Of a stretch of 32,000 nucleotides of DNA, positions 7,400 to 27,708 are shown piece after piece. The notes below the pieces were generated by a model that saw only the letters and a program-made list of their open reading frames with translations, was not told where the DNA came from and did not search any database. The DNA lies in assembly GCA_963784975.1 (NCBI GenBank), contig CAWAUK010000014.1, positions 1 to 32,000 on the forward strand, written 5' to 3'. Position 1 is the first letter of the stretch; each line of letters starts with the position of its first letter. The position numbers and the translations under genes are program-made. This DNA is from an uncultured Thermoleophilia bacterium. GTDB taxonomy: Bacteria > Actinomycetota > Thermoleophilia > UBA2241.

Positions 7400-7668
7400 C
7401 GGTCCCTTACTCCGGTCCCTCCAGCCAGTTCGGGAGGGCAGCAAGGTCGTCGTCCTGCGTGGTCCGCGCGAAGGCAGCGTCGTCGTCTTCAGGGTCGACT
7501 CACTCGAGAAGTTCTGGGAGAGGGCGACCGCCGGAGCCGACGCCGACTCGGACGACTAGCGCAAGAGGCCTCGCGGGGACGACGGGTCCACGCTCTGAGG
7601 TTCTCTGGGGGTACGCGCTCGAGGGCCGATCGTCGAAGCGACGGGGTGAGCAGTCCTGTGAGGATGAC

Positions 7669-7744
7669 TGGAGCCCGGTCGCGGATTCGAACCGCGGACC
7701 CCCTCCTTACCATGGAGGTGCTCTGCCTGCTGAGCTAACCGGGC
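7669..7744 (-). tRNA. tRNA-Thr (anticodon GGU)
   Basis: The reverse complement folds as a 76-nt cloverleaf: acceptor GCCCGGU/ACCGGGC, anticodon stem CCUCC/GGAGG, loop AUGGUAA, T-loop UUCGAAU, encoded CCA. Confidence 0.93.
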
Positions 7745-7745
7745 C

Positions 7746-7830
7746 TGGTGGGGGAGCCAGGATTTGAACCTGGGTAGGCTGCGCCAACGGATTTACAGTC
7801 CGCCCCCTTTAACCACTCGGGCACTCCCCC
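7746..7830 (-). tRNA. tRNA-Tyr (anticodon GUA), long variable arm
   Basis: The reverse complement GGGGGAGUGCCCGAGUGG...GGACUGUAAAUCC...GGUUCAAAUCCUGGCUCCCCCACCA is 85 nt, a bacterial type-II tRNA-Tyr layout. Its encoded CCA end is separated by 1 nt from the 5' end of tRNA-Thr, so the two are probably co-transcribed. Confidence 0.93.
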
Positions 7831-7842
7831 GGGAGCCGTGGA

Positions 7843-7871
7843 ATCCTAGCCCAAAGCCGGGGCGCTTTCAA
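7843..7871 (-). promoter_or_regulatory. candidate sigma70-type promoter for the tRNA-Tyr/tRNA-Thr pair
   Basis: On the minus strand: TTGAAA (7871-7866), a 17-nt spacer, then TAGGAT (7848-7843). The -10 element ends 12 nt before the tRNA-Tyr 5' end. This is a pattern match only. Confidence 0.35.
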
Positions 7872-7957
7872 CCGCCCCCGAGGCTGCGGCACGTGCGGCG
7901 GAAGGCCGGTCCGGCGAGCGCGTCGGCGGGCCGCGCAGGCCGGGTCCAGAAAGAGGC

Positions 7958-7991
7958 AGCCGGGGTCGTCAGGTGGATGACGACCCCGGCT
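7958..7991. other. 13-bp perfect stem-loop (GC-rich, 8-nt loop)
   Basis: AGCCGGGGTCGTC-aggtggat-GACGACCCCGGCT. On the minus strand it is followed by a weak T-rich tract (GCCTCTTTCT), so it could terminate an unannotated minus-strand transcript coming from 8000-8270. Confidence 0.4.
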
Positions 7992-8237
7992 TGAAAGGGT
8001 GTGACGCCCGGCCAGGGGGAGCGGGACGTCACGGGGGACTCGCATGTCATCATGGCGGCCGGACGGCGAGGGGGACTCGCCGCGGCGCTTGTGATGACAT
8101 GCGCATTCTATCCGATATACGGTCGCGCGCAACCGTTCTGCGGACCAATCGGCCTCGGGAGAATTGTACCGATTGTCCAGCGGTGATCGGCCTTGGCGAC
8201 GACCGGCAGGCCGCCGCGACAACCAGCTCTTCTCGGA

Positions 8238-8266
8238 TTGAGCGCGAAATATGCCTGTGGTACCGT
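8238..8266 (+). promoter_or_regulatory. candidate sigma70-type promoter for the CAU tRNA
   Basis: TTGAGC (8238-8243), a 17-nt spacer, then TACCGT (8261-8266), 13 nt upstream of the tRNA 5' end. Pattern match only. Confidence 0.35.
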
Positions 8267-8279
8267 AAGCATCCGCCGT

Positions 8280-8356
8280 GGCGGCGTAGCTCAGCTGGTC
8301 AGAGCAGCGGAATCATAATCCGCGTGTCGTAGGTTCGAGTCCTACCGCCGCTACCA
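8280..8356 (+). tRNA. tRNA with CAU anticodon (elongator Met or lysidine-type Ile2; not initiator)
   Basis: 77-nt cloverleaf: acceptor GGCGGCG/CGCCGCU, anticodon stem GCGGA/UCCGC, loop AUCAUAA, T-arm GUAGG-UUCGAGU-CCUAC, discriminator A, encoded CCA. It has A31-U39 instead of the initiator's three G-C pairs, and positions 1 and 72 can pair (G-U). Confidence 0.9.
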
Positions 8357-8911
8357 GCACTCCCATCTCGTGTGACCCCCTTCATCGGTCGGTTTGCTGC
8401 GGTCCTGCTGATCAGTGGCCTGGGCGATCGCGACCGTTCCCGTCCCAGGTCCCGCCGCGTCACGCTGCTGGCGCGGCGACAGGTGGCCGTGCATGCGCTG
8501 GGTGAAGTCCGGATCCGCGAGTTTGCGGCGCGGCGCGTCGATGCGTGAACGATTCTTCAATGGCTCTACCATTTTCTACACATGTATATATTGACAGGGA
8601 GGACGTACTGACGGAGGCTGTGCTGCACATACGGGAAGGCTACCCCTGCGGAAGGGATGGCCTGGCTGTTGTGACGACGCCCCCGCCTCCTCTCAGCCGG
8701 GCTGCCAGGAATCGATCTTGGTGGCTCGGCTGTTGTGCATTCTGGATGCTGCGCAAGGAGGAGAGTTGCAGGAGGTGAGATGACTTCCCGCGGACCACCT
8801 CAGGGCGACGGACGATCCATTCCGGGTCGCAGCGACGCCGAGATGCAACGGCAACATGACGCCGCGGATGTGATAGGCAAGGTACGTCACCAAACGGAAG
8901 GAGGGTCACGT

Positions 8912-9115
8912 ATGCAGTGTTATGTGTGCGCGAAGGCCGGCAAGCAGACCGAGGCGGTCGGCATCTGTATCGTGTGCGGCATGGGTCTCTGCATGGATCA
9001 CGCGATCCGCGAGGATGTCGACCTGTGGGAGGGGGGTTACCCGTTCCCGAAAGAAAAGGCCAAGAAGAAGCTGCCGCGCATCCTCTGCGCGGAGTGCAAG
9101 GAAGTCCTCGTCTAA
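8912..9115 (+). CDS. 67-aa Cys-rich metal-binding miniprotein (DUF2180-like, from memory)
   Basis: ATG at 8912 with GGAAGGAGGG 6 nt upstream. Product: MQCYVCAKAGKQTEAVGICIVCGMGLCMDHAIRED...ILCAECKEVLV, with C3xxC6, C19xxC22, C27xxH30 and C59xxC62. An in-frame ATG at 8780 also has an AGGAGG, so the start is uncertain. Confidence 0.65.
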   Translation: MQCYVCAKAGKQTEAVGICIVCGMGLCMDHAIREDVDLWEGGYPFPKEKAKKKLPRILCAECKEVLV

Positions 9116-9239
9116 CGCGACAACCGCACGCTGAGTCACCTCTCGAAGACCAAGCGCGACCCGGGCCGGTCGCCCGACCGGCGGCCCATCCCGGTGGAGT
9201 GATGAACGGAAACCGGTCAAACGAGGTACGGAGGTAGAG

Positions 9240-10772
9240 ATGTCGCTTTATGAGAAGATGATCAACGAGGCCGTCGGCGCCACCAAGGCAGTGTTCGGCG
9301 TCAACAAGGCCAATCGCGGCGGCACCTTCAAGGTCGTCGATGCCAAGCCCTACGTGGACGCCGTCAATAAGATGACGGTCTATGAGGGTCAGTCCAAGGA
9401 GGTCATCGACCTCCACGTCAAGTCGGTGAACGCGCACTTCGACGTCATGACCTCGCTCACCGACACGGTGCGTCCCGAGGACGACCCGTTCGTCGAGCAC
9501 TATCAGACGCCGCCGATCCTCGAGATCATGTATGAGGAAGATCCCGCGTTCAAAGCTTCGATGTGGAAGTTCATCGACGCCATCGCCGCGAACAAGGCAC
9601 TCATCGGCCGCGAGTCCGTGCGCCGCTACGGTGGCATGTACGGCCCCACCTGCGTCGTCGACTTCGCGATGTCGGTCGGCTCGGTGCCCAACGTCGTGAA
9701 CCAGATCCTCACCGGAATGGACATCCCCAAGGACCACAAGCAGACCATCCTCGCCTGCAAGTCCTGGGGCATGAACACCTCCTACGGACTCGCCGGCGCG
9801 TTCCGCGGGGCCTTGGAGTCGGGCAAGACGGCGGCCGAGGCCGAGCAGGCCGAGGTCGACATGCTGCAGTTCGTGTACCGTGAGCCCTGCGCCGCCCAGT
9901 CGCAGCTCATGGACACCCACAACCTCGGCGGCCACGGCCCGCACACCTCCTTCGACACGCGCAAGTACATGGCGGGCTACAAGGACAAGATGCGCGCGTC
10001 CGTCGTCGCCGCCATGAAGGGCGGGGTGCACTACGCCAACATCACCGCCGTCCCCGCCTACTGCGTCGGCGACGTCGCTCACCACATCGCGCAGTCGGCC
10101 TACAACATGTTCAACGACGACATGGTGTTCGCCATCTACGAGGCAGTCACCGGCGTGCTCGAGAACACGCTCAACCGTGCCCTCAAGGCCGACGCCTTCA
10201 AGGGCCCCTACGACGTCCTTTCGGTGGCGACGGGCTCGACGGCGTGCGCCACGGCGTACATCCTGTGGAAGGACAGCTTCACCGTCCCGATGGTCATCGA
10301 CCTGCTGAACAAGCGCTTCCACAACTACGCGGCGATGCATCCGGACCGCGGCGAGGCCGACGAGCTGCACAACGTCGACTTCATGGACATCCTCAAGCGC
10401 GGTGAGGCGATCCTCGACATCACCCCGCTCGGCAAGGGTGGCAAGGTCAAGGGCGTCGAGGTCGATCTCAGCACGGTGGACAGCAACGAGGTCATCAGCA
10501 ACCCGCAGCGCTACACCTACCCGGCCTGCGCCATCACGCAGCGCTTCGCCGCCCTGATGACGCTGTCCGACTTCCCCTGCTTCCTCACGCCTGAGTGCAC
10601 CACCGCCACCCTCATGACGAACGCCATCGCCGTGGCTCCCGGCGTGCCCGGCGCTCCGGTGCGCGGCTGCAAGCAGTGCGCGACCTGCGACCTGATCAAG
10701 AGGAACGTCCCGATGGCGACCGGCCTTGGCTCCGGCGCCAAGGGCTACTGCCAGTGGAACGTGACCGTCTGA
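9240..10772 (+). CDS. 510-aa conserved-looking protein of unknown function with Cys-rich C-terminus
   Basis: ATG with GGAGG 6 nt upstream and a balanced, protein-like composition. By contrast, the antisense 576-aa ORF is Arg/Gly/His/Val-rich. Motifs include GGMYGPTCVVDF, SWGMNTSYGLAGAF, YCVGDVAHHIAQSAYNMFNDD and a C-terminal RGCKQCATCD...YCQWNVTV. I cannot place it in a known enzyme family. Confidence 0.8.
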   Translation: MSLYEKMINEAVGATKAVFGVNKANRGGTFKVVDAKPYVDAVNKMTVYEGQSKEVIDLHVKSVNAHFDVMTSLTDTVRPEDDPFVEHYQTPPILEIMYEEDPAFKASMWKFIDAIAANKALIGRESVRRYGGMYGPTCVVDFAMSVGSVPNVVNQILTGMDIPKDHKQTILACKSWGMNTSYGLAGAFRGALESGKTAAEAEQAEVDMLQFVYREPCAAQSQLMDTHNLGGHGPHTSFDTRKYMAGYKDKMRASVVAAMKGGVHYANITAVPAYCVGDVAHHIAQSAYNMFNDDMVFAIYEAVTGVLENTLNRALKADAFKGPYDVLSVATGSTACATAYILWKDSFTVPMVIDLLNKRFHNYAAMHPDRGEADELHNVDFMDILKRGEAILDITPLGKGGKVKGVEVDLSTVDSNEVISNPQRYTYPACAITQRFAALMTLSDFPCFLTPECTTATLMTNAIAVAPGVPGAPVRGCKQCATCDLIKRNVPMATGLGSGAKGYCQWNVTV

Positions 10773-10813
10773 GGCGAGCGGACAACGTGCATCTGACGCG
10801 ACGCTGACCGGAA

Positions 10814-10852
10814 CGAGCGGGGATCGAGAAAAGGAATCTCGATCCCCGCTCG
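10814..10852 (+). other. 16-bp perfect intergenic stem-loop between the 510-aa gene and the MIP gene
   Basis: CGAGCGGGGATCGAGA-aaaggaa-TCTCGATCCCCGCTCG. No U-tract follows, so it looks like an mRNA stabiliser, processing site or attenuator rather than a classic intrinsic terminator. Confidence 0.6.
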
Positions 10853-10889
10853 GGCCGCCGCCCTGTCAATTCGTTCTGGAGGTGACACT

Positions 10890-11624
10890 GTGCCGCAACC
10901 CAGCCTTATGAAGCGCGCCGTCGCCGAGATGATCGGCACCTGGGTGCTGGTGTTCCTGGGCACGGGTTCCGTGGTGACGATGGTCGTGTTCTTCAAGTCT
11001 CTCGACGCCGTCAATCAGGCCGCTCTCCTGCTCATCGGCATATCCTTCGGGGTCGCCGTCCTCGTGATGATCTACGTCTTCGGGCACATCTCGGGCACCC
11101 ACATCAACCCTGCTGTGAGCATCGCCCTGTGGATCACCGGGCGCTTTCCGGCCAAGGACATGGTGGCGTATGTCATCGCGCAGCTGATCGGCGCGTTCCT
11201 CGCTTCGGCGACGATCTATGCCCTTTGGGGGTCGCGCGCCGTCGACGCAGGACTGGGCATCACGCTGCCGGGAGCCGGGGTGAGTTACACCCAGGCGATC
11301 TTCGTCGAGATAGTCCTGACGTTCTTCCTGGGGCTCGCCATCTGGGGCTCGGCAGTCGACAGCCGGGCGCCCGGGGGCTTCGCAGGGCTCGCCATCGGTC
11401 TCGTGGTCGCCGCCGATATCTGGGTCGGTGGCCCGCTCACCGGGGCGTCGATGAACCCGGCGCGTTCCTTCGGGCCGTTCCTTGGCGAGAGTGTGTTCGG
11501 CGGCTCGGCCGCCGATTGGGCCAAGTTCCCGATCTACATCATCGGGCCGATCGTCGGCCTGGCCCTGGCGGGCTTGGTGTACGACTACGTCTCAGACCTG
11601 AAGAAGAAGGCCGCGTCTGAGTGA
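10890..11624 (+). CDS. MIP-family channel (aquaporin AqpZ/AqpM-like)
   Basis: GTG with GGAGGTG 5 nt upstream (alternative ATG at 10908). It has six hydrophobic segments and both NPA boxes (SGTHINPAVS and GASMNPARSFGP). Confidence 0.9.
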   Translation: MPQPSLMKRAVAEMIGTWVLVFLGTGSVVTMVVFFKSLDAVNQAALLLIGISFGVAVLVMIYVFGHISGTHINPAVSIALWITGRFPAKDMVAYVIAQLIGAFLASATIYALWGSRAVDAGLGITLPGAGVSYTQAIFVEIVLTFFLGLAIWGSAVDSRAPGGFAGLAIGLVVAADIWVGGPLTGASMNPARSFGPFLGESVFGGSAADWAKFPIYIIGPIVGLALAGLVYDYVSDLKKKAASE

Positions 11625-11678
11625 ACGACGTGCCGCCGGTGTCCTTCCGGGAGACGACGGTGCGAAGCAAGCAGTGAT

Positions 11679-11733
11679 GGGGCGAAGGCGGGGGCGTGAC
11701 GCTGGTCACGATCGCCCCCGCCTTCGTCGCCCC
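11679..11733 (+). other. long GC-rich intergenic stem-loop between the MIP and flavoprotein genes
   Basis: GGGGCGAAGGCGGGGGCG ... CGCCCCCGCCTTCG(TCG)CCCC: a 14-bp stem plus 4 more bp across a 3-nt bulge, with a 16-nt loop. Its presence argues against the GTG 11696 start for the next gene. Confidence 0.55.
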
Positions 11734-11767
11734 GGACGATAGCGTCGAGCAGGGATCTGGAGAACGG

Positions 11768-12388
11768 ATGAACGGCAGGGGTATGAGGCTCCTCGGGGTC
11801 TCGGGAAGTCCGCGTCGCAAGGCGACGGACTTCGCGGTGAACGAGGCGCTCAGGTACGCCCGTGAGCAGCACGGTGCGGACGTCGACTACTTCAGCGCTC
11901 ATCGCAAGTCCATCGGGTTCTGCGTGCACTGCGACGCGTGCATTCGCAAGAAGCAGGGGTGTGCCTTCAAGGATGACATGGAGGAGGTGTATCCCAAGCT
12001 CGAGTGGGCCGACGCCTGGATCCTCGGTACGCCTGTGTACCAGGGGCAGGTGAGCGGCCAGTTGAAGGCGATCCTCGACCGCTGCCGGGCACTCGTCGCC
12101 GGCGAGCCCGGCGTCTTTCGCAACAAGGTCGGGGCCGGCATCGCCGTGGGGGGAGACCGCAGCGGTGGCCAGGAGCCCACGCTCCAGACGATCGCAGGCT
12201 TCTATCTCATCAACGAGATGATCCCCGTCGGCGGCGGCGCGTTCGGCGCGAACCTCGGCGCCGCCGTCTGGTCACACGACAAGGGCGCCGCCGGCGTCGA
12301 GGCCGACGATGAGGGCGTCCGCGCGATCCACCGTGTGGTCGACCGCCTGGTCGAGGTCACCCGTCTGGTCGCTCGTCCGGTATCCTGA
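11768..12388 (+). CDS. iron-sulfur flavoprotein (Isf-type, NADPH-dependent FMN reductase fold)
   Basis: The N-terminus (MRLLGVSGSPRR...) is typical of the FMN-reductase fold, and the compact Isf cysteine motif is present (CVHCDACIRKKQGC, i.e. CxxCxxCx6C). The start could be 11768 or 11783. Confidence 0.8.
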   Translation: MNGRGMRLLGVSGSPRRKATDFAVNEALRYAREQHGADVDYFSAHRKSIGFCVHCDACIRKKQGCAFKDDMEEVYPKLEWADAWILGTPVYQGQVSGQLKAILDRCRALVAGEPGVFRNKVGAGIAVGGDRSGGQEPTLQTIAGFYLINEMIPVGGGAFGANLGAAVWSHDKGAAGVEADDEGVRAIHRVVDRLVEVTRLVARPVS

Positions 12389-12395
12389 GGAAGTG

Positions 12396-12968
12396 ATGAC
12401 GATGACGCTGAAGGTTGTGTGGGGCATCAGCGGTTCCGGCGACAAGATGCCCGAGACCGTCGCCGCCATGGCGCAGGCTCGGGAACGGCTCGACCTGGAG
12501 ATCACGGCGGCCGTGTCCATCGCCGGGGAGCGGGTGCTGCGCTGGTACAAGCTGCGCGAGACGGTCGACGAGATCGCGAAGTCGGTGAAGATCGAGAAGG
12601 ACGCCAACTCGCCGTTCATCACCGGGCCGTTGCAGATCGGTCAGTACGATTGCCTGCTGGTGGCGCCCGCGACTGCGAACTCGGTGGCGAAGATCGTGCA
12701 CGGCATCGAGGACAGCATGCTGACGAACGCCGTCGGGCAGACCGCCAAGTCGACGACGCCGATCTACATCATGCCGGTCGATCTCCGCCCGGGCACGACG
12801 GTGACCATGCGCCCCGGCGGCGAGCGCCTCGAGCTCAAGATCCGCGCGATCGACGTGGAGAACACCAGCAAGTTGCGCACCATGGAAGGCATCAGCGTGT
12901 TCGAATCGCCCTCCGAGATCGAGGGCATCCTCCGGGCTTGCGCGGAACGGAAGGACGTCGGCTCGTGA
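12396..12968 (+). CDS. AfpA/DmrB-like flavoprotein (candidate dihydromethanopterin reductase)
   Basis: HFCD-type flavoprotein motifs: VVWGISGSGDK and LLVAPATANSVAKIVHGIEDSMLTNAV. It lies 7 nt after the Isf gene and overlaps the start of mptG (GTGA). The functional name rests on context plus the known DmrB/AfpA relationship. Confidence 0.7.
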   Translation: MTMTLKVVWGISGSGDKMPETVAAMAQARERLDLEITAAVSIAGERVLRWYKLRETVDEIAKSVKIEKDANSPFITGPLQIGQYDCLLVAPATANSVAKIVHGIEDSMLTNAVGQTAKSTTPIYIMPVDLRPGTTVTMRPGGERLELKIRAIDVENTSKLRTMEGISVFESPSEIEGILRACAERKDVGS

Positions 12969-13936
12969 GGGTGTCGGTCGACACCGGCTGCAGGCTGCAC
13001 TTGGGCTTCACCAACCTGAGCGACGACGTGGGCCGCTGCTATGGCAGCCTCGGCGTCGCGCTGGACCGTCCCAGCACGACGGTCATCGTGGAAGAATGCC
13101 GTGACGCGGTCGTCGTCGGAGACGACCCGGAGCAGATCCGCGCGTGCTATGCGGCGCTTCTGTGACCACTATCAGGTCGACCCCCGGGTCTCCATCGAGG
13201 TCAGCGAGTGCATCCCTCAGCACGTCGGTCTCGGCTCGGGTACGCAGCTCGCCCTGGCCATCGGCCTGGGCCTGGCGATGGTCTGCGGTATCGACGCAAA
13301 TGTGTGGGACGTCGCCTCGGCCATGGGCAGGGGACGCCGGTCCGGGATCGGGACGGCGGCATTCCAGACGGGCGGATTCGTCGTCGATGCCGGTCACAAG
13401 AGGGGCGGGATCCGGTCGGGACGCGGCGCCGACGGTGGTGTGGCGCCGCGATCTTCCCGCAGACTGGCGCTTTGTCGTGGTCGTTCCCGACGCGGACGGC
13501 GGTCTGAGCGGGCACAGCGAAGAGGGGGTCTTCGGAGCGTTGGCGCCGTCGGTGCGGATCTCCGAGGAGATCAGCAGGATCACGCTGCTCAGACTGATGC
13601 CGGCCCTCGTCGAGCACGACATCGAGGAGTTCGGCCGCGCCTTGACTGCGGTGGACCGCAAGACCGGCGAGTACTTCTCGGATGTGCAGGGCGGCATATA
13701 CGGCGGGGGGGAGACCAACGCGGCCGTCGATGCTCTGCTGCGCGCCGGCGCCTGCGGGGCGGGACAGAGTTCCTGGGGGCCGGCGGTCTATGGCCTCGTG
13801 CACGAGAAGGATGTCGGGAGGATCGAAGCAGCGGTCAAGAAGTCCCTGGCGGACGACTGGCAGAGAGGCGCAGGTCTTCGCGAGTCACGGCCGCAACACG
13901 GAAGCGAGAGTGGAAGTACTGAAGGTCGCGCTATGA
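12965..13936 (+). pseudogene. mptG: beta-ribofuranosylaminobenzene 5'-phosphate synthase (H4MPT biosynthesis), interrupted by three +1 frameshifts
   Basis: The GHMP-kinase-like protein is spread over frames 2, 0, 1 and 2. Segment 1 is VRVSVDTGCRLHLGF...IRACYAA, ending near 13157. Segment 2 is FCDHYQVDPRVSIEVSECIPQHVGLGSGTQLALA...GGFVVDAGHK, with the next shift between 13400 and 13435. Segment 3 is VVWRRDLPADWRFVVVVP...SSWGPAVYGLV...LADDW, with the last shift near 13860-13873. Segment 4 is QVFASHGRNTEARVEVLKVAL*. This could be real decay or sequence error. Confidence 0.8.
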
Positions 13937-14663: not shown

Positions 14664-15536
14664 ATGAAGAAGATCCTGCTGCAGCTCGACAGCGATCGCA
14701 CGGCGAGCGTGTTCGACGCAGTCACGGCCTACGACGCCGGTGCGGACGTGCTTCTTCAGCATGGCTCGGTGGAGCCGGCCGAGGTCCGTGCCATCGTCTA
14801 CGGCGCCATGTTCACGCGCGGCGGCGAAGACCTCAAGAGTTCGGCCGTGTTCATCGGCGGGGCCGACGTGGCCAAGGGCGAAGCCCTGCTCAAGGAGGCC
14901 TGCGGCGCCTTCTTCGGGCCGGTCCGGGTCTCCGTGATGCTGGATGCCAACGGGTGCAACACCACGGCGACCGCCGCCGTCGTCAAGCTTCTCTCCGCCG
15001 GCGATCTGCGCGGGAAGAAGACGGTCGTGCTGGCCGGCACCGGCCCGGTCGGCCGCAGGGCGGCCGGGCTCCTCGCGAAGGAAGGGGCGGACGTGGTCGT
15101 GGCCGAGACCCTGCCCACGGGGACGATGGAGCGGGCGAAGGACGCCTGCGCCACCATCGAGGAGCGCTTCGGGGTGCAGGTGACCCCCGCCGCCGCCGCC
15201 GACGCAGCCGCCACTGCGCGCGTGCTCGAGGGGGCGGAGGCGGTCCTCTGCACCGGCGCCGCCGGGCTTCAGCTGGTCTCTGAGACGATCTGGAGAGATC
15301 ACCCCACCCTGCGGGTGCTGGGCGACGTGAACGCCGTCCCACCGGTCGGCCTGGAGGGCACCAAGGCGACGTGGGACGGCAAGGACGTTGACGGCAAGAT
15401 CGTGTTCGGGGCTCTCGGCATCGGCAACCTCAAGATGAAGATCCACCATCGTTCCGTCGGACGGCTCTTCGAGCAGAACGACCTGGTCCTGGATGCGGAG
15501 GAGATCTTCGCCCTCGCCAAGGAGCTGGCGCAGTAG
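14664..15536 (+). CDS. mtdB: NAD(P)-dependent methylene-tetrahydromethanopterin dehydrogenase (MtdA/B/C family)
   Basis: 290 aa with GAGGGAGG upstream. The sequence has the MtdA/MtdB layout (MKKILLQLDSD...VFDAVTAYDAGAD..., Rossmann segment VVLAGTGPVGRRAA). Which paralogue it is cannot be decided by eye. Confidence 0.85.
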   Translation: MKKILLQLDSDRTASVFDAVTAYDAGADVLLQHGSVEPAEVRAIVYGAMFTRGGEDLKSSAVFIGGADVAKGEALLKEACGAFFGPVRVSVMLDANGCNTTATAAVVKLLSAGDLRGKKTVVLAGTGPVGRRAAGLLAKEGADVVVAETLPTGTMERAKDACATIEERFGVQVTPAAAADAAATARVLEGAEAVLCTGAAGLQLVSETIWRDHPTLRVLGDVNAVPPVGLEGTKATWDGKDVDGKIVFGALGIGNLKMKIHHRSVGRLFEQNDLVLDAEEIFALAKELAQ

Positions 15537-16734
15537 TGCGAGTCCTCGTCCTCGGAGTGAGCACGCGGGCGATGGTCGAGTCCGCGGTCCGCGGCGGTCA
15601 CGAGGTCGTTGCCGTGGATTTCTTCGGCGATCGCGATCAGGCGGGGTTGGCGGAGAGCTACGCGTTGCAGCGGGATCTCGGCCTGCCGGCGACCGCGGAA
15701 GGGTTGGCGGCGGCGGCGCGACGCATCGCCGCCGACGCGGTCGTCTACGGCGCCAATCTGGAGAACCACCCCGAGGTGGTCGGCGAGCTGACTCACGGAG
15801 TGCGGCTGCTCGGCAATCCGGCCGAGGTCGTCCGGGACGTGCGTGACTGGAGCCTGCTCCGACGCGTCTGTGTGAAGGCCGGGATCGCGCACCCGGTGAC
15901 CCTGCTGCGCGGCGAGGAGGAGCGCGCCCGGCGCGGGCGCTGGTTGAAGAAGCGCCTGCGCAGCGGCGGCGGCCACGGGATCGCGGCATGGGACGGCACA
16001 GCGCTGGACGACGCTCACCTGTCTGCAGGCCGAAGTGGACGGCCGCGCAGCTTCGGTCGCGTTCGTGGCCGACGGCAAGGAAGGTCGCATCTTCGGCCTC
16101 ACCGAGCAGCTCTTGGGGCTTTCCGCGCTGGGTGGTTCCGGTTTCGCCTGGTGCGGCAACGTGCTGCCGCTCGAGGTCCCGGAGGCGGACGCCGCATCGG
16201 TCCGCGCCCAATTGGAGCACATGGTGTCGTGTCTTACCCGGCACTTTGGCCTCGTCGGTGTCAACGGGTTGGACGTGGTGATCGGCCGCGACCCCGAAGG
16301 CGTCGTGCGGCCGTTTCTGATCGAGGTCAACCCGCGCTTCAGCGGTTCCATGGAGCTGGCGGAACGCGCCTTCGGCGTCGGCGTGTTCGCGCTCCACGTC
16401 GAAGGCTCAGCGGGCACTATGCCGCGCGGTTCTTTCGCCGTCGAGCGCGCTCCCGACGGCTGCGTCGGCAAGGGGATCGTGTACGCACGGCGCCCGGTCG
16501 TCGCCCCGGACACCGGGAAGTGGCGTTCCCGCGGCGTCCGGGACGTGCCGTGGTCCGGCCAGCAGTGTCGCCGCCGGGCATCCGGTGTGCACAGTATTCG
16601 CTCGCGGCCGAGACCGTGAGGCGTGCCTTGACGGACTGTCCTCGGCTGCGGCCGCGGTGTATGGAGATATCGAGGAGAAAGAGGAGGGGCGCCGTGGGCA
16701 AACGACTCGCCTTCATCACCGGACGCGCGCGTAG
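15536..16734 (+). pseudogene. ATP-grasp ligase of the C1-cofactor cluster type, interrupted by two +1 frameshifts
   Basis: Frame 2 reads MRVLVLGVSTRAMVESAVRGGHEVVAVDFFGD...KKRLRSGGGHGIAAWDGTALDDAHL up to 16021. After an extra nt at 16022, frame 0 reads LQAEVDGRAASVAFVADGKE...LIEVNPRFSGSMEL...RDVPW. After a shift near 16558-16562, frame 1 reads SSVAAGHPVCTVFARGRDREACL...* and ends at 16734. Confidence 0.75.
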
Positions 16735-16773
16735 GGCGTCCGGCATGCACAGGGGCACAGAGGAGGCGGTGGC

Positions 16774-18410
16774 ATGATGCTCGGCATCCTCGGCGGGCGC
16801 GTCTACGACCCGCGAAACGGCAAGGACGGCGAGGTCGGCGACATCTGGGTGAAGGACGGCCGTGTGGTTGCGCCGGAGGACGTGGACCGAGAGTCGGCGC
16901 AGACCGTCGACGCCGCCGGCCTTGTGGTCATGCCCGGCGGCGTCGACATCCACGCGCACATCGCCGGCGGCGAGGTGAACTCTGGCCGCAAGCTTCAGCC
17001 TGAGGATCACCGCGGCCATGAGCGCGCGCGATCGGCCAACCTGCGCGCGGGCGCCGGAGGGATCGTCCCCTCCACCCACCTCACCGGGTATCTCTACTCC
17101 GAGCTCGGCTACACGACGGTGATGCAGGCGTCCGCCGCGCCGCTCGCGGCCCGGCACGTCCACGAAGAGCTCGAGGACGTGCCCAACATCGACAATGGCA
17201 CCTACATCGTGATGGGCAACAACCACTTCGTCATGCAATGCATCGCCGACAAGCAGCCCGAGAAGGCGCGCGACTATGTGGCCTGGCTCCTGCGAGCCAC
17301 CCGCGGCTACGCGATCAAGATCGTGAATCCCGGCGGCGTCGAGAACTGGAAGTGGGGCAAGAACGTCGCCGAGCTGGACGACGAGGTCATCGGCTACGGA
17401 GTCACTCCGCGACAGATCGTCCAGACCCTGGCTTCTATCGCCGACGATCTCGGCCTGCCGCACTCGATCCACGTCCACGGCATCAACCTGGGCCGGCACA
17501 CGAGCGCCAGAACGAGCATCGAGACGATGGCCGCCCTCACCGGGCATCGCCTGCATCTGTGCCACCTGCAGTTCCTGAGCTACGGGGCGGGACGCGGCCA
17601 CATCCACTCATCGGAGGCGGCCGCCGTCGCGGCGGCGGTCAATGCCAACCCGGAGTCACCGTCGACGTCGGACAGCTGATCTTCGGCGATGCCACGACGA
17701 TGACCTGTGACGGCCCTCTCCAGTACGCCCTCTACCAGACGACCGGCCACAGGTGGATCAACAGCGACGTGGAGAGCGAAACGGGCGGGGGGGTCGTGCC
17801 CATCGTCTACAAGCGCCCGCAATCCCATCAACGCGACGATGTGGCTCACCGGCATGGAGCTCTTCCTGCTGATCGACGACCCGTGGCGGGTCTTCCTGAG
17901 CACCGATCATCCCAACGCTGGTCCCTTCACCAGCTATCCACAGGTCATCAGGCTGCTCATGGACCGCGACTACCGGCGGGAGGTGTTCGAGAGCCTGCAC
18001 CCGCGTGCACGCCGAGGGAGCTCTGCTTCCGGAGCTGGACCGCGAGTACTCTCTCGGCGAGATCGCCGTCATCAGTCGCGCCGGTCCCGCACTGGCGCTC
18101 GGCCTCGAGCACAAGGGCCACCTGGGCGTCGGCGCCGACGGCGACATCGCCATCTATGAGGATCGCGCCGACAAGGAGGCGATGTTCGCCCGCCCGCGGT
18201 ACGTCTACAAGGGCGGCGAGCTCGTCGCACGCGACGGCGTCGTCGTCGCGGATAGTCCGCGGTCGCACGTTCGCAGTGGCGCCGGAGTACGACACAGGGA
18301 TCGAGGCCGAGCTACGCGAGTACTTCAAGGAGGCGTACACGGTCTCGTTCGACAACTTCTCGATGCTTGCCGGCCACGAAGCCCCCTTCGAGATCGTGGC
18401 CTGTCGCTGA
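16774..18410 (+). pseudogene. fwdA: formylmethanofuran dehydrogenase / formyltransferase-hydrolase subunit A (amidohydrolase), interrupted by four frameshifts
   Basis: Frame 1 holds MMLGILGGRVYDP...GGVDIHAHIAGG...AIKIVNPGG...HLCHLQFLSYG...AVNANP. A -1 shift near 17653 leads to frame 0: VTVDVGQLIFGDATTMTCDGP...GGGVVPIVYKR. A +1 shift near 17814-17818 leads to frame 1: [43 protein letters not shown]...HPR. A +1 shift near 18000-18012 leads to frame 2: [27 protein letters not shown]...[15 protein letters not shown]...DGVVVAD. A +1 shift near 18251-18254 leads to frame 0: [13 protein letters not shown]...EIVACR*. Confidence 0.85.
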
Positions 18411-18422
18411 GGAGGTCCGCGC

Positions 18423-19400
18423 ATGCCAGATGACTCATGGTGCCGCGTGCAGCGCGACACACAGCAAGGGCGCCCGGCCGTGCCCGTGGCTCTGAGCCGC
18501 GCCGGTGTGACCAATCTGCGCCGCATCATCTCGATGAAGGACAGCGGCAGGTCCGAGCTGTTCTACGCGACGCTCGACCTGTTCGCCGATCTCAGCTCCA
18601 AGCACGCCGGCGTCCACATGTCGCGCTTCAGCGAGGTGGTCGAGGGTCTCGCCGAGGGCCTCACGCGCAGACCGTTCGCCGACATCGAGTCACTCGCCAA
18701 GCGCATGGCCGAAGACGTGGTCGAGACCCAGGAGGCGACGCGCGCCGAGGTCCACATCAGAGTGCAGTCGCCGATCACGAAACAGACCCCGGTCACGCAT
18801 CGGCCCACGGAGCAGCTCTTCACCTTGGTGGGCATCGCCGCGGCGTCGCGCACGCGGACACGCCTCCTTGTCGGGGTCGAGGTGCACGGCCTGACCGTGT
18901 GCCCGTGCGCCCAGGACATGATCCGCGGTCAGTCACTGGACCGCCTCTGCGCCAACGGCTACAGCGAAGAGGAGGCCGAGCGGATCCTGGGTCTTCTGCC
19001 CATCGCCTCGCACAACCAGCGCGGCAAGGGCACGCTCCTCATCGGCTCGGAGAGCCGCCTTCCCGCGGGCGACCTGGTGGCCATCGTCGAGCAGTCGATG
19101 AGCTCCGAGATCTACGAGCTGCTCAAGCGCCCGGACGAGCTCTACGTCGTCGACAAGGCGCATCGCAATCCGCGCTTCGTCGAGGATGTGGTGCGCGAGA
19201 TGCTGCGCCACGTCGTCGAGGACTATCCGGACCTCCCGGACGACTCGTTCGTTCTGGCCCGCCAGGAGAACTACGAGGGCATCCACGAGCACAATGCCTT
19301 CGCCGAGCGGTACGGCACCATGGCGGAGATCCGCCCCGAACTCGCCGGCAAGACGTTCGCCACGCGGCACACCGCCCTGGGCGAGTGGATGGCGGGCTAG
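18423..19400 (+). CDS. mptA: GTP cyclohydrolase, FolE2/MptA family
   Basis: 325 aa with GAGGAGG upstream. Motifs: [27 protein letters not shown]. The cluster context favours the pterin branch of H4MPT synthesis. Confidence 0.85.
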
Positions 19401-25476: not shown

Positions 25477-26334
25477 TCAGTGCGCCCCTTGAGGCGCCGC
25501 CGACGGCCCTTGCTCTCCCGGCGCCGCGGGCTGGCAGATCAGGATCTCCCCCTTGCCCAGCCAACAGGTGTCTCCTGTGAAGCGCCGGTAGGGGCCGCGC
25601 CAGCCGTGTTCAGGGGCCGGCACGCCACGCTTCTGAAGGTGTTCCGCGTAGACACGCAGGAAGGTAGGTTCGTATGTGCAGGCGTAGAGAAAGGTCGGCA
25701 GGAGATTGAGCGGCTCAAATGCCACGATCGTGCCTCTGGCCATCCAGGCGCCGGCACGGATGCCTGCCCTGCCGAACAGGAACAGGGTGCCCCCCTTCAT
25801 CTGCAAGCCTGCGAAGTCGCCCACCTGTCCCTGGATGCTGATGAGGCCTCGCAGCATCCGCATCCCGACCTCGATCCCCGCGCTGCCGTCGATCAGGATC
25901 TCGCCACCCCGCATGCCGACGGTGCTCCCACGATAGGCCGCGCCGACCTGCCCGCCGGCGCTGCCGTGGATGCGGATCAGGCCGCCGGTCATCTCCGCGC
26001 CGAGCCAGTCCGCGGCGTCCCCCTCGACCGTGATCGTCCCGCCGGTCATGTACGCTCCCAGGTGCATCCCCACGTTCCCCCGGATCACGATGCTGCCCTG
26101 GGTCATGCCGCGGCCGATCCACTTCACCTGAGCGAGGTTCCCGCGCAGTTCGAGAGCGGCGCTCTTCTCGCCCTCCACCTCGAAGAAGTCGCCCAGGCGG
26201 CGCCGTCGATTGCCCAGGTAGACCGGCTGCTCCAGGATCTCGGCGTGCCCCATCTCCCTGAGGTTGTCGGGCGAGAGCGCCTCGACTTCGAGAGGCGTCA
26301 TCAGCTCTTCCTTGAGCGTCGCCACGACGGTCAC
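25477..26334 (-). CDS. fwdC: formylmethanofuran dehydrogenase subunit C (second paralogue)
   Basis: 285 aa. The N-terminus VVATLKEELMTPLEVEALSPDN aligns by eye with methanogen FwdC N-termini. Repeats: GAYMTGGTITVEGDA, GAEMTGGLIRIHGSAG, MRGGEILIDGSAG. It starts 24 nt downstream of fwdB. Confidence 0.88.
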   Translation of the reverse strand: MTVVATLKEELMTPLEVEALSPDNLREMGHAEILEQPVYLGNRRRRLGDFFEVEGEKSAALELRGNLAQVKWIGRGMTQGSIVIRGNVGMHLGAYMTGGTITVEGDAADWLGAEMTGGLIRIHGSAGGQVGAAYRGSTVGMRGGEILIDGSAGIEVGMRMLRGLISIQGQVGDFAGLQMKGGTLFLFGRAGIRAGAWMARGTIVAFEPLNLLPTFLYACTYEPTFLRVYAEHLQKRGVPAPEHGWRGPYRRFTGDTCWLGKGEILICQPAAPGEQGPSAAPQGAH

Positions 26335-26358
26335 CTTGCCGCCGCCTCACTCAGTGCT

Positions 26359-27708
26359 TCACGAAGTGTCTTCCTCAGCGGCGGGTCCCGGGCCATTCTG
26401 CGCCGTCCCGGCGTTGCCATGTGGTGCCCTGGCCGCTACCGCCTCGAGGATCCGGCCCATCACCTCCTCATCGGTCGGGTAGGGAGACCGCAGCGACGGC
26501 CGGGCTCGCAGGGGAACCTCGTCCATCCGGTAGACCGTGCCCGGGGCGCTGATGCCGGTCACGGCGGTGGTGATGTGGACGCGAGCGAGCTTGCTGGTGT
26601 GGGTGACCTTCGGGTCCAGCACGATCGTCGGCACCCGGGCCATGTGGTCGATCGCCGGCTTGGGCATCGTCGCTCCGGGATCCGCGGCCAGCACCAGCAC
26701 GGCGTCGACCTCGCCGCGGGTCAACAGGTCGATCGTGGTGTATTCGCCGGGGTTGTAGCGAGGGTAGCCTCGGCTGAAGTCGACGCCGAACGGATACCCG
26801 GTCAGCCAGCTCGTGACGGCATCAGCGCCCGTCACGTTGCCGTGACCGCGGAGCGGCATCGATACGAAGCGGGTGAACTCGTTCATCTCCACGCCCAACG
26901 TCAGCATCGCCGCCGCGTTCATGAACTTGCCGCGAGTCATGGTCAGTCCCATCCCGAAGAACATCGCCCCGTAGCTGGCGCGCTTCATGCGGTCCGCCAG
27001 GTCCTGGAGCTGCTCCAGGGTGAGACCCGTCTCCTCCAGGCGCTCCCGGTCGACGCGACGACCCTTGACCAGGGCGCGGAGGGCCGTCAGCGCCTCAAAA
27101 TCCCTGGCCGGGCGGATCTGCAGGAAGATGTCGGCGATACGCGAACTCGGCGTCTTGCGGACGTCGACCACGACTACCGTCCGCCCCTTGCGGCCCTCGG
27201 GCGTGTATTTGCCTTTCGGGGTCACGGAGTACCGTGTGAAGTGGCGGGGATGGCACTCTGCGGGATTCGCGCCCCAGAGAATGACGAGGTCTGCTCGATC
27301 CTTTATCTCGCCCAGCGTAGCCTTTGACCTACCGCCCAACTGGGCAGCCATTTCACTGGGGCCGTGTCACAACGAGGAGTGGCTGTCGACCACGCCGCCA
27401 AGCCGCTCGGCCAGCGACACAGCCTCGCGCTGGGTCTCGCTGGTGGTATTGCTGAGGCCGTAGATGAGCGGGTAATGAGCGTCGACGAGGAAGTCGGCTG
27501 CCAGCGCCACGGCCGCGTCCAGCGAGGCCGGCTGCCCGTCGATCAGCGCCGGCGGATAGTGCGCCTCGGCGGAATGGTTGGTGAACCAGGCTCCCCCCAG
27601 GGCGCAGGCGTGCCTGGCCTTGACGATGCGATCTCCCTCGGTATGGACTTCGATGTCATCGCAGACGCAGCCGCAGAACGTACACACCGCGTTGCTCACA
27701 ACAGCCAT
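26359..27708 (-). CDS. fwdB: formylmethanofuran dehydrogenase subunit B, selenocysteine-containing (in-frame UGA at 27369..27367)
   Basis: ORFs 27367..27708 and 26359..27351 are in the same frame and are separated only by a TGA. The read-through is 450 codons. The N-terminal Fe-S motif is CTFCGCVCDD. The UGA sits in ...VVDSHSSL-U-HGPSEMAAQLG, matching the Cys/Sec active-site context (U/C-HGPS) of the FwdB/formate dehydrogenase family. GGAGGAG lies 6 nt before the ATG at 27708. Confidence 0.8.
27331..27348 (-). promoter_or_regulatory. candidate bacterial SECIS hairpin
   Basis: The mRNA sequence GCUGCCC-AGUU-GGGCGGU (7-bp stem including G-U pairs, GU in the loop) begins 18 nt after the UGA. 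The distance is within the range described for bacterial SECIS elements. Not energy-evaluated. Confidence 0.45.

Follow-up and report, generated by a model that had tools for sequence, protein, structure and literature searches.

We analyzed a 32,000-nucleotide stretch of DNA from an uncultured Thermoleophilia bacterium (GenBank assembly GCA_963784975.1, contig CAWAUK010000014.1, positions 1 to 32,000 of the forward strand; here, the window), in which an initial annotation made from the letters alone had drawn attention to a 510-aa protein with a cysteine-rich C-terminal tail. The protein is an ordinary, intact bacterial member of a known but functionally unexplained family, DUF2193 (Pfam PF09959). 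Its gene lies behind a riboswitch-like leader RNA at the head of an island of genes for one-carbon (C1) transfer linked to tetrahydromethanopterin (H4MPT), and DUF2193 is an accessory that is almost confined to genomes with the H4MPT pathway, yet is not in all of them. We infer, at roughly even confidence, that DUF2193 is an accessory iron-sulfur (Fe-S) redox enzyme of H4MPT-linked C1 metabolism that acts on a small uncharged compound.

A compact protein family with a cysteine-rich tail

The DUF2193 reading frame begins at an ATG that follows, by 5 nt, a GGAGG at positions 9230 to 9234, in keeping with the strong Shine-Dalgarno sequence claimed for it, and the translation of positions 9240 to 10772 on the plus strand contains all four segments quoted in the initial annotation. 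Because dN/dS is 0.06 to 0.12 against the closest relatives (loci L009, L012, and L019), the frame is a real gene under purifying selection and not a chance frame of high-GC DNA. Residues 2 to 489 align with profile positions 2 to 488 of the 498 in PF09959 (E = 2.5e-226; 752.4 bits against a cut-off of 25), and 951 scored homologs were found in a large protein collection, the few named ones being called "DUF2193 domain-containing protein." The label of orphan given to the protein was thus withdrawn, a lineage-restricted orphan being ruled out by the Pfam match and the homologs. PF09959 was the only Pfam match, the translation contains no CX3CX2C motif, and no sign of a radical S-adenosylmethionine (SAM) enzyme was found, which agrees with the earlier remark that no P-loop, Rossmann, or radical SAM motif (CxxxCxxC) could be seen. 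NCBIfam held no model for DUF2193 or for DUF2180, the family of the small protein encoded upstream.

Among the top 120 of the 951 homologs, identity was 74 to 96%. The nearest genomic loci belong to metagenome-assembled genomes (MAGs) of Thermoleophilia (Actinomycetota; 83 to 96% identity), followed at 64 to 78% by relatives in Anaerolineae, Syntrophobacterales and other Thermodesulfobacteriota, Synergistaceae, Caldisericota, and Spirochaetaceae, and then by archaeal relatives in Methanoperedenaceae (61%) and Methanobacteria (54 to 56%). The family is compact: a search of 1.84 billion cluster representatives returned only 137 DUF2193 clusters, ∼15 of them full length.

Conservation was mapped on an alignment of 30 DUF2193 sequences from six bacterial phyla and two archaeal groups (alignment A1). 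It contains 110 invariant columns, spread over the whole chain and including many His, Asp, Glu, and Cys residues; C138, C430, and C447 are invariant, and C275, C477, C480, and C504 are retained in ≥90% of the sequences. The conservation pattern of the core is probably that of an enzyme because so many columns are invariant, identity between the Actinomycetota and methanogen proteins reaches 54 to 61%, and dN/dS is ∼0.1.

The last ∼80 aa carry the seven Cys residues originally counted there (C430, C447, C453, C477, C480, C483, and C504), and the CxxCxxC motif corresponds to C477-x2-C480-x2-C483. The proposal that this tail forms an Fe-S or Zn site has gained strength. Across bacteria and archaea, C477, C480, and C504 are near-invariant. 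In a Chloroflexia member (L064:8001-9545), the three conserved tail Cys residues are all replaced (by D, S, and D), whereas the core is kept; this joint loss suggests that the three residues function as one and that the core has its own role. The locus of this tail-less variant retains the leader RNA and the H4MPT context. A separate divergent member (P0122; 617 aa, 47% identity) has no tail Cys either and bears an N-terminal extension of ∼130 residues, which, from a reading of its sequence, resembles a PD-(D/E)xK nuclease-like motif.

A homolog from Methanococcus voltae, MvoDUF2193 (Mvol_0354), was reported to bind one [4Fe-4S] cluster through its Cys-rich tail and to pass from an apo tetramer to a holo monomer, and the tail motif of methanogen members was defined as CX2CX6DX2(H/C)X2C (Dieter et al., FEBS Lett 2025, PMC12375889). 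By analogy with this protein, the flexible C-terminal tail of the window protein most likely holds one [4Fe-4S] cluster. The two share membership in the same Pfam family over their full length, a predicted all-alpha core, a disordered Cys-rich tail with a CX2C pair and a distal Cys, and a neighboring gene for a major intrinsic protein (MIP, or aquaporin); the identity of 54 to 56% given above is for Methanobacteria homologs and not for the M. voltae protein. They differ in that the bacterial clade has an 11-residue tail insert, which yields CX2C-X23-C spacing, and has Lys/Arg and Lys in place of the archaeal Asp and His/Cys, and in that the bacterial gene lies within an H4MPT C1 island and follows a structured leader RNA. 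In the window protein, the CX2C pair (C477 and C480) and the last Cys (C504) of the methanogen motif are present, and C483 is a possible fourth ligand that would give a ferredoxin-like CX2CX2C...C arrangement; C483 is absent from most other bacterial members. Two further features set the bacterial clade apart: six inserted residues within the HNLGGHGPH segment and the absence of a 7-residue loop that archaeal members have. In an alignment of the deep branches (A2; 28 to 41% identity), the CX2C...(C/H)X2C pattern is mostly kept. According to the literature, the same CX2CX6DX2(H/C)X2C tail occurs on a COG2122 ApbE-like protein (Mvol_0331), where it was proposed to be a labile Fe-S ligand set (PMC9431491), although the body of that protein is unrelated to DUF2193.

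An AlphaFold model of DUF2193 computed with alignment A1 is all-alpha, with a mean predicted local distance difference test (pLDDT) score of 86.2 and a predicted template modeling score of 0.89. It has 28 helices of at least 4 residues and one short strand, and residues 490 to 497 fall below a pLDDT of 50 and are predicted to be disordered, giving a mainly alpha-helical body with an unstructured C terminus. The check by structure comparison proposed in the initial annotation returned no characterized relative: the best Foldseek match in the Protein Data Bank (PDB) had an E value of 0.27, with template modeling scores of ≤0.16 and nothing significant, and phmmer and profile searches of PDB sequences gave nothing below an E value of 0.6. 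As far as the model can tell, the fold has no solved relative. A confident match to a characterized family, which was to refute the annotation, was therefore found only in part: the family is a named one with a single biochemically studied member, but no function has been assigned to it.

Association with H4MPT genes and a leader RNA

The neighborhoods of 80 DUF2193 loci were surveyed with 8-kb flanks. MtdB, a methylene-H4MPT dehydrogenase, was encoded at 45/55 bacterial loci with at least 3 kb of downstream sequence, and most of the others carried other H4MPT genes. MtdB directly follows DUF2193 in Synergistaceae (5/5) and Caldisericota (2/2), both without MIP and DUF2180, and in three Anaerolineae the next gene is a paralog of Mch. 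MIP adjoins DUF2193 in 21/21 Thermoleophilia, 6/6 Thermodesulfobacteriota, 2/18 Anaerolineae, and 0/5 Synergistaceae, and it travels together with DUF2180 (in Thermoleophilia, Thermodesulfobacteriota, and archaea).

The same association was found at the level of genomes, with Mch as the marker of the pathway. Among Thermoleophilia relatives, DUF2193 was present in 10/13 Mch-positive and 0/28 Mch-negative genomes; in a sample of the class Anaerolineae, the counts were 8/17 and 1/184, the lone Mch-negative bearer being a 1.7-Mb genome in which the gene lies at the end of a contig; in a sample of the class Synergistia, they were 8/10, with a fragment in a ninth genome, and 0/141. For the three phyla pooled, Mch was present in 27/28 genomes with DUF2193, and DUF2193 was present in 1/353 Mch-negative genomes. 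Fisher p values range from 3e-7 to 1e-13, although the genomes are related and not independent, so that significance is overstated. The island is patchy even within the genus (Mch in 10 of the 24 other genomes sampled), and DUF2193 is missing from a 100% complete genome that has Mch and an adjacent Fae gene (G038).

A leader motif of ∼70 nt recurs on the coding strand upstream of DUF2180/DUF2193 in Thermoleophilia, Thermodesulfobacteriota, and Anaerolineae, sometimes in tandem. Its predicted structure, three short helices and a hairpin-loop pseudoknot, is 91% paired, compared with ≤48% in slid controls; 7 pairs show compensatory change, and 0/500 shuffles reached the observed values. The stem of the terminator-like hairpin is predicted to pair alignment columns 74 to 83 with columns 107 to 116 and also covaries (AU 18 and GC 11 at one pair); a U-rich tail follows the hairpin in most relatives and is weak in the window. 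A covariance model (R1) scored the window leader at 65.5 bits as a single copy in its genome and, across 1 Mb of loci, picked up 49 copies, every one on the strand of the gene. The leader precedes the gene at 22/22 loci in Thermoleophilia, 7/8 in Thermodesulfobacteriota, and 9/15 in Anaerolineae, and it also stands ahead of DUF2193 at L039 and L045, two loci without nearby H4MPT genes; the covariance model scan did not find it at Synergistaceae, Caldisericota, or archaeal loci.

An Rfam scan of positions 7600 to 11000 at E ≤ 5 left the leader unmatched and returned only three tRNAs and two sub-threshold chance matches. The candidate leader resembles the terminator-coupled tetrahydrofolate (THF) and 5-aminoimidazole-4-carboxamide riboside 5′-triphosphate (ZTP) riboswitches in its compact aptamer-like core, in the 3′ strand that the core has in common with the terminator hairpin, and in its single or tandem occurrence ahead of C1-related genes; unlike them, it has no Rfam family match. 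It looks like a putative metabolite-responsive control aimed at DUF2193. Literature searches on DUF2180, PF09959, and riboswitches with methanopterin brought up no report of a tie between DUF2193 and either H4MPT genes or a leader RNA, and a simple promoter and terminator scan of positions 8300 to 13200 gave nothing useful.

A second copy of the leader at other loci (L049:9180-11792; also L025, L027, and L044) precedes a gene for a 593-aa protein without a Pfam match, 69 to 79% identical across three phyla, which is followed by an open reading frame of ∼170 aa resembling the C-terminal part of the LarC nickel insertase. The window does not contain this pair.

The gene island in the window

The features around DUF2193 are listed in the table. 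The same-strand string runs in order from the leader RNA through DUF2180, DUF2193, the AqpM-type MIP, the two flavoproteins (Isf-like, then AfpA-type), and beta-RFAP synthase, with a DUF447 gene on the opposite strand, and onward through the MtdB-like gene, a conserved protein without a match, Fhc subunits, a dihydropteroate-synthase-like protein, DUF1464, FTR, Mch, and ATP-grasp proteins to CitG-like, HisA/F-like, and hydantoinase-like genes. The Fhc subunits, Mch, and the pterin-binding and ATP-grasp proteins were recognized by Pfam matches to FTR, MCH, GXGXG, Amidohydro_3, DUF1464, and RimK, and the matches farther downstream were CitG, His_biosynth, ATP-grasp_3, and Hydantoinase_A. This string is a bacterial H4MPT-linked C1-transfer set.

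Features of the DUF2193 island, with positions in the window
Feature	Position	Strand	Basis and remarks
Riboswitch-like leader RNA, aptamer-like core (three short helices and pseudoknot)	8636..8708	+	Conserved motif, covariation
Terminator-like hairpin, candidate expression platform	8695..8742	+	RNAalifold; overlaps 3′ strand of leader RNA
DUF2180 small Cys-rich protein, 67 aa	8912..9115	+	Pfam PF09947, E 2.3e-35
DUF2193 gene, 510 aa	9240..10772	+	ATG start; Pfam PF09959; tail Cys C477/C480/C483/C504
AqpM-type major intrinsic protein (aquaporin)	10890..11624	+	Pfam MIP, E 2e-52
Iron-sulfur-flavoprotein (Isf)-like flavin mononucleotide (FMN) reductase, CX2CX2CX6C	11696..12388	+	Pfam FMN_red, E 8e-33; motif from translation
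AfpA-type archaeoflavoprotein (related to dihydromethanopterin reductases)	12396..12968	+	NCBIfam TIGR02699, 209.8 bits, cut-off 192.45
beta-RFAP synthase (first committed H4MPT synthesis step)	12965..13933	+	NCBIfam NF040726/TIGR00144 partial; frame in four pieces
MtdB-like methylene-H4MPT dehydrogenase	14664..15536	+	Pfam Mpt_N; start of C1-transfer genes, to at least 25398

The initial annotation had vaguely associated the protein with an archaeal DUF found near DUF2180 genes, and a DUF2180 gene does lie directly upstream. The encoded protein has invariant C3, C6, C19, C22, C27, H30, C59, and C62, ligands enough for two metal sites, and 20 invariant columns in 23 sequences. Its AlphaFold model (pLDDT 85) showed a weak zinc-ribbon likeness in Foldseek searches of the PDB, with no significant match, and sequence and profile searches of the PDB gave none. 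Downstream, the MIP gene begins 117 nt after DUF2193, and its nearest structures are archaeal AqpM (3NE2 and 2EVU; E = 1e-54, compared with 1e-30 for AqpZ). In the Isf-like frame the FMN_red domain starts at residue 30, and translation probably begins at 11768 or 11783.

A maximum-likelihood tree places the bacterial DUF2193 sequences in one clade (Shimodaira-Hasegawa-like approximate likelihood ratio support of 100) inside the archaeal sequences and sister to Methanoperedenaceae, with short branches between bacterial phyla; the outgroups are long-branched, which leaves the root uncertain. This topology fits one transfer from an archaeon to a bacterium, followed by spread among anaerobes. Because the bacterial clade is nested in archaea and the channel is of the AqpM type, the DUF2180 zinc-ribbon protein, DUF2193, and the AqpM-type channel appear to be a module of archaeal origin.

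Upstream of the island are HycI-like, HypF, HypD, and HypE hydrogenase maturation genes and three tRNA genes, and GC content falls from ∼8.4 kb, where the long same-strand string starts. The tRNA genes (Thr, Tyr, and Met; positions 7669 to 8356) lie between the hyp genes (GC 0.72 to 0.75) and the first 3 kb of the island (GC 0.63 to 0.65), which fits acquisition of the island next to tRNA genes; its right-hand end is beyond the window. Two further observations concern the island itself. The gene directly after MtdB (positions 15536 to 16777, plus strand) encodes a conserved 393- to 413-aa protein with no Pfam or NCBIfam match, and the family occurs on the same strand in 49/80 related loci in five phyla. 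On the minus strand, positions 25477 to 27351 hold a second pair of FwdC-like (GXGXG) and FwdB-like (weak Molybdopterin match) genes, besides the plus-strand Fhc genes.

Proposed role of DUF2193 and competing explanations

In the reading that we favor, DUF2193 would be a soluble all-alpha protein whose tail residues C477, C480, and C504, with C483 available as a fourth ligand, hold a [4Fe-4S] cluster. The DUF2180-DUF2193-AqpM module, followed by two flavoproteins and placed behind the riboswitch-like leader, heads an H4MPT-dependent C1-oxidation island. Electrons would pass from the tail cluster to a site in the helical core that is rich in His, Asp, and Cys, and the protein would act on a small uncharged compound, one able to cross the AqpM channel and to join or exit the pathway near methylene-H4MPT. 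A bolder form of this proposal, which we put forward only tentatively, is that DUF2193 is a missing oxygen-sensitive Fe-S enzyme that moves a small uncharged C1 compound in or out at the level of methylene-H4MPT, that the compound, for which hydrated formaldehyde is a conceivable candidate, enters through an AqpM-type channel where one is present, that a new riboswitch class senses the compound or an H4MPT derivative and switches the enzyme on, and that the whole module reached at least six bacterial phyla by a single transfer from methanogen-related archaea.

Several points weigh against the reading that we favor. Activity, substrate, or partner has been demonstrated for no member of the family; the predicted fold offers no clue to catalysis; and the sole biochemical study proposes a carrier, sensor, or regulator and not an enzyme (PMC12375889). 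Cluster binding in the window protein is extrapolated because the archaeal Asp/His positions are absent and the tail is 11 residues longer; in the deep branches (A2), moreover, no single Cys is invariant. DUF2193 was not found in the control genome of M. jannaschii, is missing from 9/17 Mch-positive Anaerolineae, and is non-essential in M. maripaludis (PMC12375889); because of these observations, it cannot be a core step of the pathway. The beta-RFAP synthase gene (pieces in frames 2, 3, 1, and 2 by tblastn with intact orthologs) and the FhcA gene (positions 16798 to 18489; at least three pieces) are frameshifted in the window and intact in L010, L013, and L036, and the frameshifts may reflect either assembly error or decay of the island; the source MAG is 83% complete with 5.9% contamination, and the DUF2193 gene is intact despite its frameshifted neighbors.

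Fae (formaldehyde-activating enzyme; PF08714), known to catalyze entry into the bacterial H4MPT pathway, offers a comparison. Like DUF2193, it is encoded in or near H4MPT C1 clusters beside MtdB and Mch, but it is a cofactor-free alpha/beta protein of ∼160 aa, whereas DUF2193 is a 510-aa protein that is predicted to be all-alpha and to carry an Fe-S cluster. Fae was not found in the genome of the window (G000) or in G042, G043, and G045, all of which bear DUF2193 and one of which is a complete chromosome. Fae-like genes nevertheless occur in 52/201 Anaerolineae regardless of Mch and also in Mch-negative Thermoleophilia, which makes a test of complementarity between the two families uninformative and adds to the points against our reading. 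The idea that DUF2193 replaces Fae is thus neither supported nor excluded.

The most durable alternative, possible if unlikely, is that DUF2193 carries Fe-S clusters or serves as an Fe-S/redox sensor-regulator with a tetramer-monomer switch, the channel serving iron or sulfur acquisition. The single cluster and the apo-to-holo transition of MvoDUF2193 speak for it, as does the increased abundance of the M. voltae protein on pyrite, seen in earlier proteomics (PMC9431491) and amounting to a 13-fold rise (PMC12375889). An MIP gene, moreover, adjoins 91% of the methanogen homologs (PMC12375889) and is present in the window. The analogy drawn in that study is with FNR- and IscR-type Fe-S sensors, in which cluster occupancy likewise alters the oligomeric state (PMC12375889). 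The analogy is one of function only. DUF2193, unlike these sensors, has no DNA-binding domain, is conserved across its whole core, and is roughly twice their size. A core of 500 residues with its invariant columns and neither a DNA-binding nor a P-loop domain is unlike known carriers or regulators, and L064 retains this core without the tail Cys. In Synergistaceae, in Caldisericota, and for most Anaerolineae copies, MIP and DUF2180 are missing, yet DUF2193 is directly followed by MtdB or Mch; it is H4MPT genes, and not Fe-S assembly genes, with which the family co-occurs; and a metabolite-type leader RNA precedes the gene. A carrier or sensor accounts poorly for so large and conserved a core, for the tail-less variant, and for the adjacency to MtdB and Mch where there is no channel.

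Slightly less probable again is an oxygen-sensitive enzyme of the biosynthesis, salvage, or repair of H4MPT or methanofuran in anaerobes. The near confinement of the family to H4MPT genomes would suit such a role, as would the beta-RFAP synthase, DUF447, AfpA/Dmr-type flavoprotein, dihydropteroate-synthase-like, CitG-like, and ATP-grasp neighbors. However, M. jannaschii makes both cofactors and is among the genomes without DUF2193, as are G038 and the nine Mch-positive Anaerolineae, and where the MIP module is absent, the immediate neighbors are the C1-converting MtdB and Mch and not biosynthetic genes. A role in cofactor biosynthesis or repair is weakened because the family is absent from many H4MPT-using genomes and because the M. 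maripaludis homolog is non-essential.

An oxidative-stress module is improbable. DUF2180, DUF2193, AqpM, Isf, and AfpA would then act together, the flavoproteins handling peroxide or oxygen and DUF2193 serving as a thiol- or Fe-S-based peroxide sensor or reductase. This idea agrees with the general knowledge that Isf-type flavoproteins of Methanosarcina are reductases of O2 and H2O2 and that H2O2 can pass through aquaporins. It also draws on the intrasubunit disulfides of MvoDUF2193 and on its STRING partners tied to oxidative stress (PMC12375889). Many bacterial copies, however, lack both MIP and Isf and still stand beside MtdB or Mch, and a tie to one cofactor pathway is not what a general stress module would lead one to expect. 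Finally, that the frame is a lineage-restricted orphan or a chance opening is refuted by the Pfam match, the 951 homologs, the low dN/dS, and the Shine-Dalgarno sequence, even though DNA of high GC content (63 to 75% in the window) does give long spurious frames, such as one of 576 aa at positions 8640 to 10370 on the minus strand, and nothing was left in its favor after testing.

DUF2193 is among the best-conserved methanogen proteins that still have neither a function nor a solved fold, and the only published lead has been iron-sulfur trafficking. The bacterial copies add independent information in the form of a tie to H4MPT by gene order, co-occurrence in three phyla, and a dedicated leader RNA. 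The question of function thereby becomes testable, through the C1 or pterin compound that the RNA would bind and through the action of the protein with H4MPT. The H4MPT pathway is best known from aerobic methylotrophs and methanogens; if DUF2193 is indeed an accessory enzyme, it would fill a gap in how the pathway is used by strictly anaerobic bacteria of peat, sediments, and guts.

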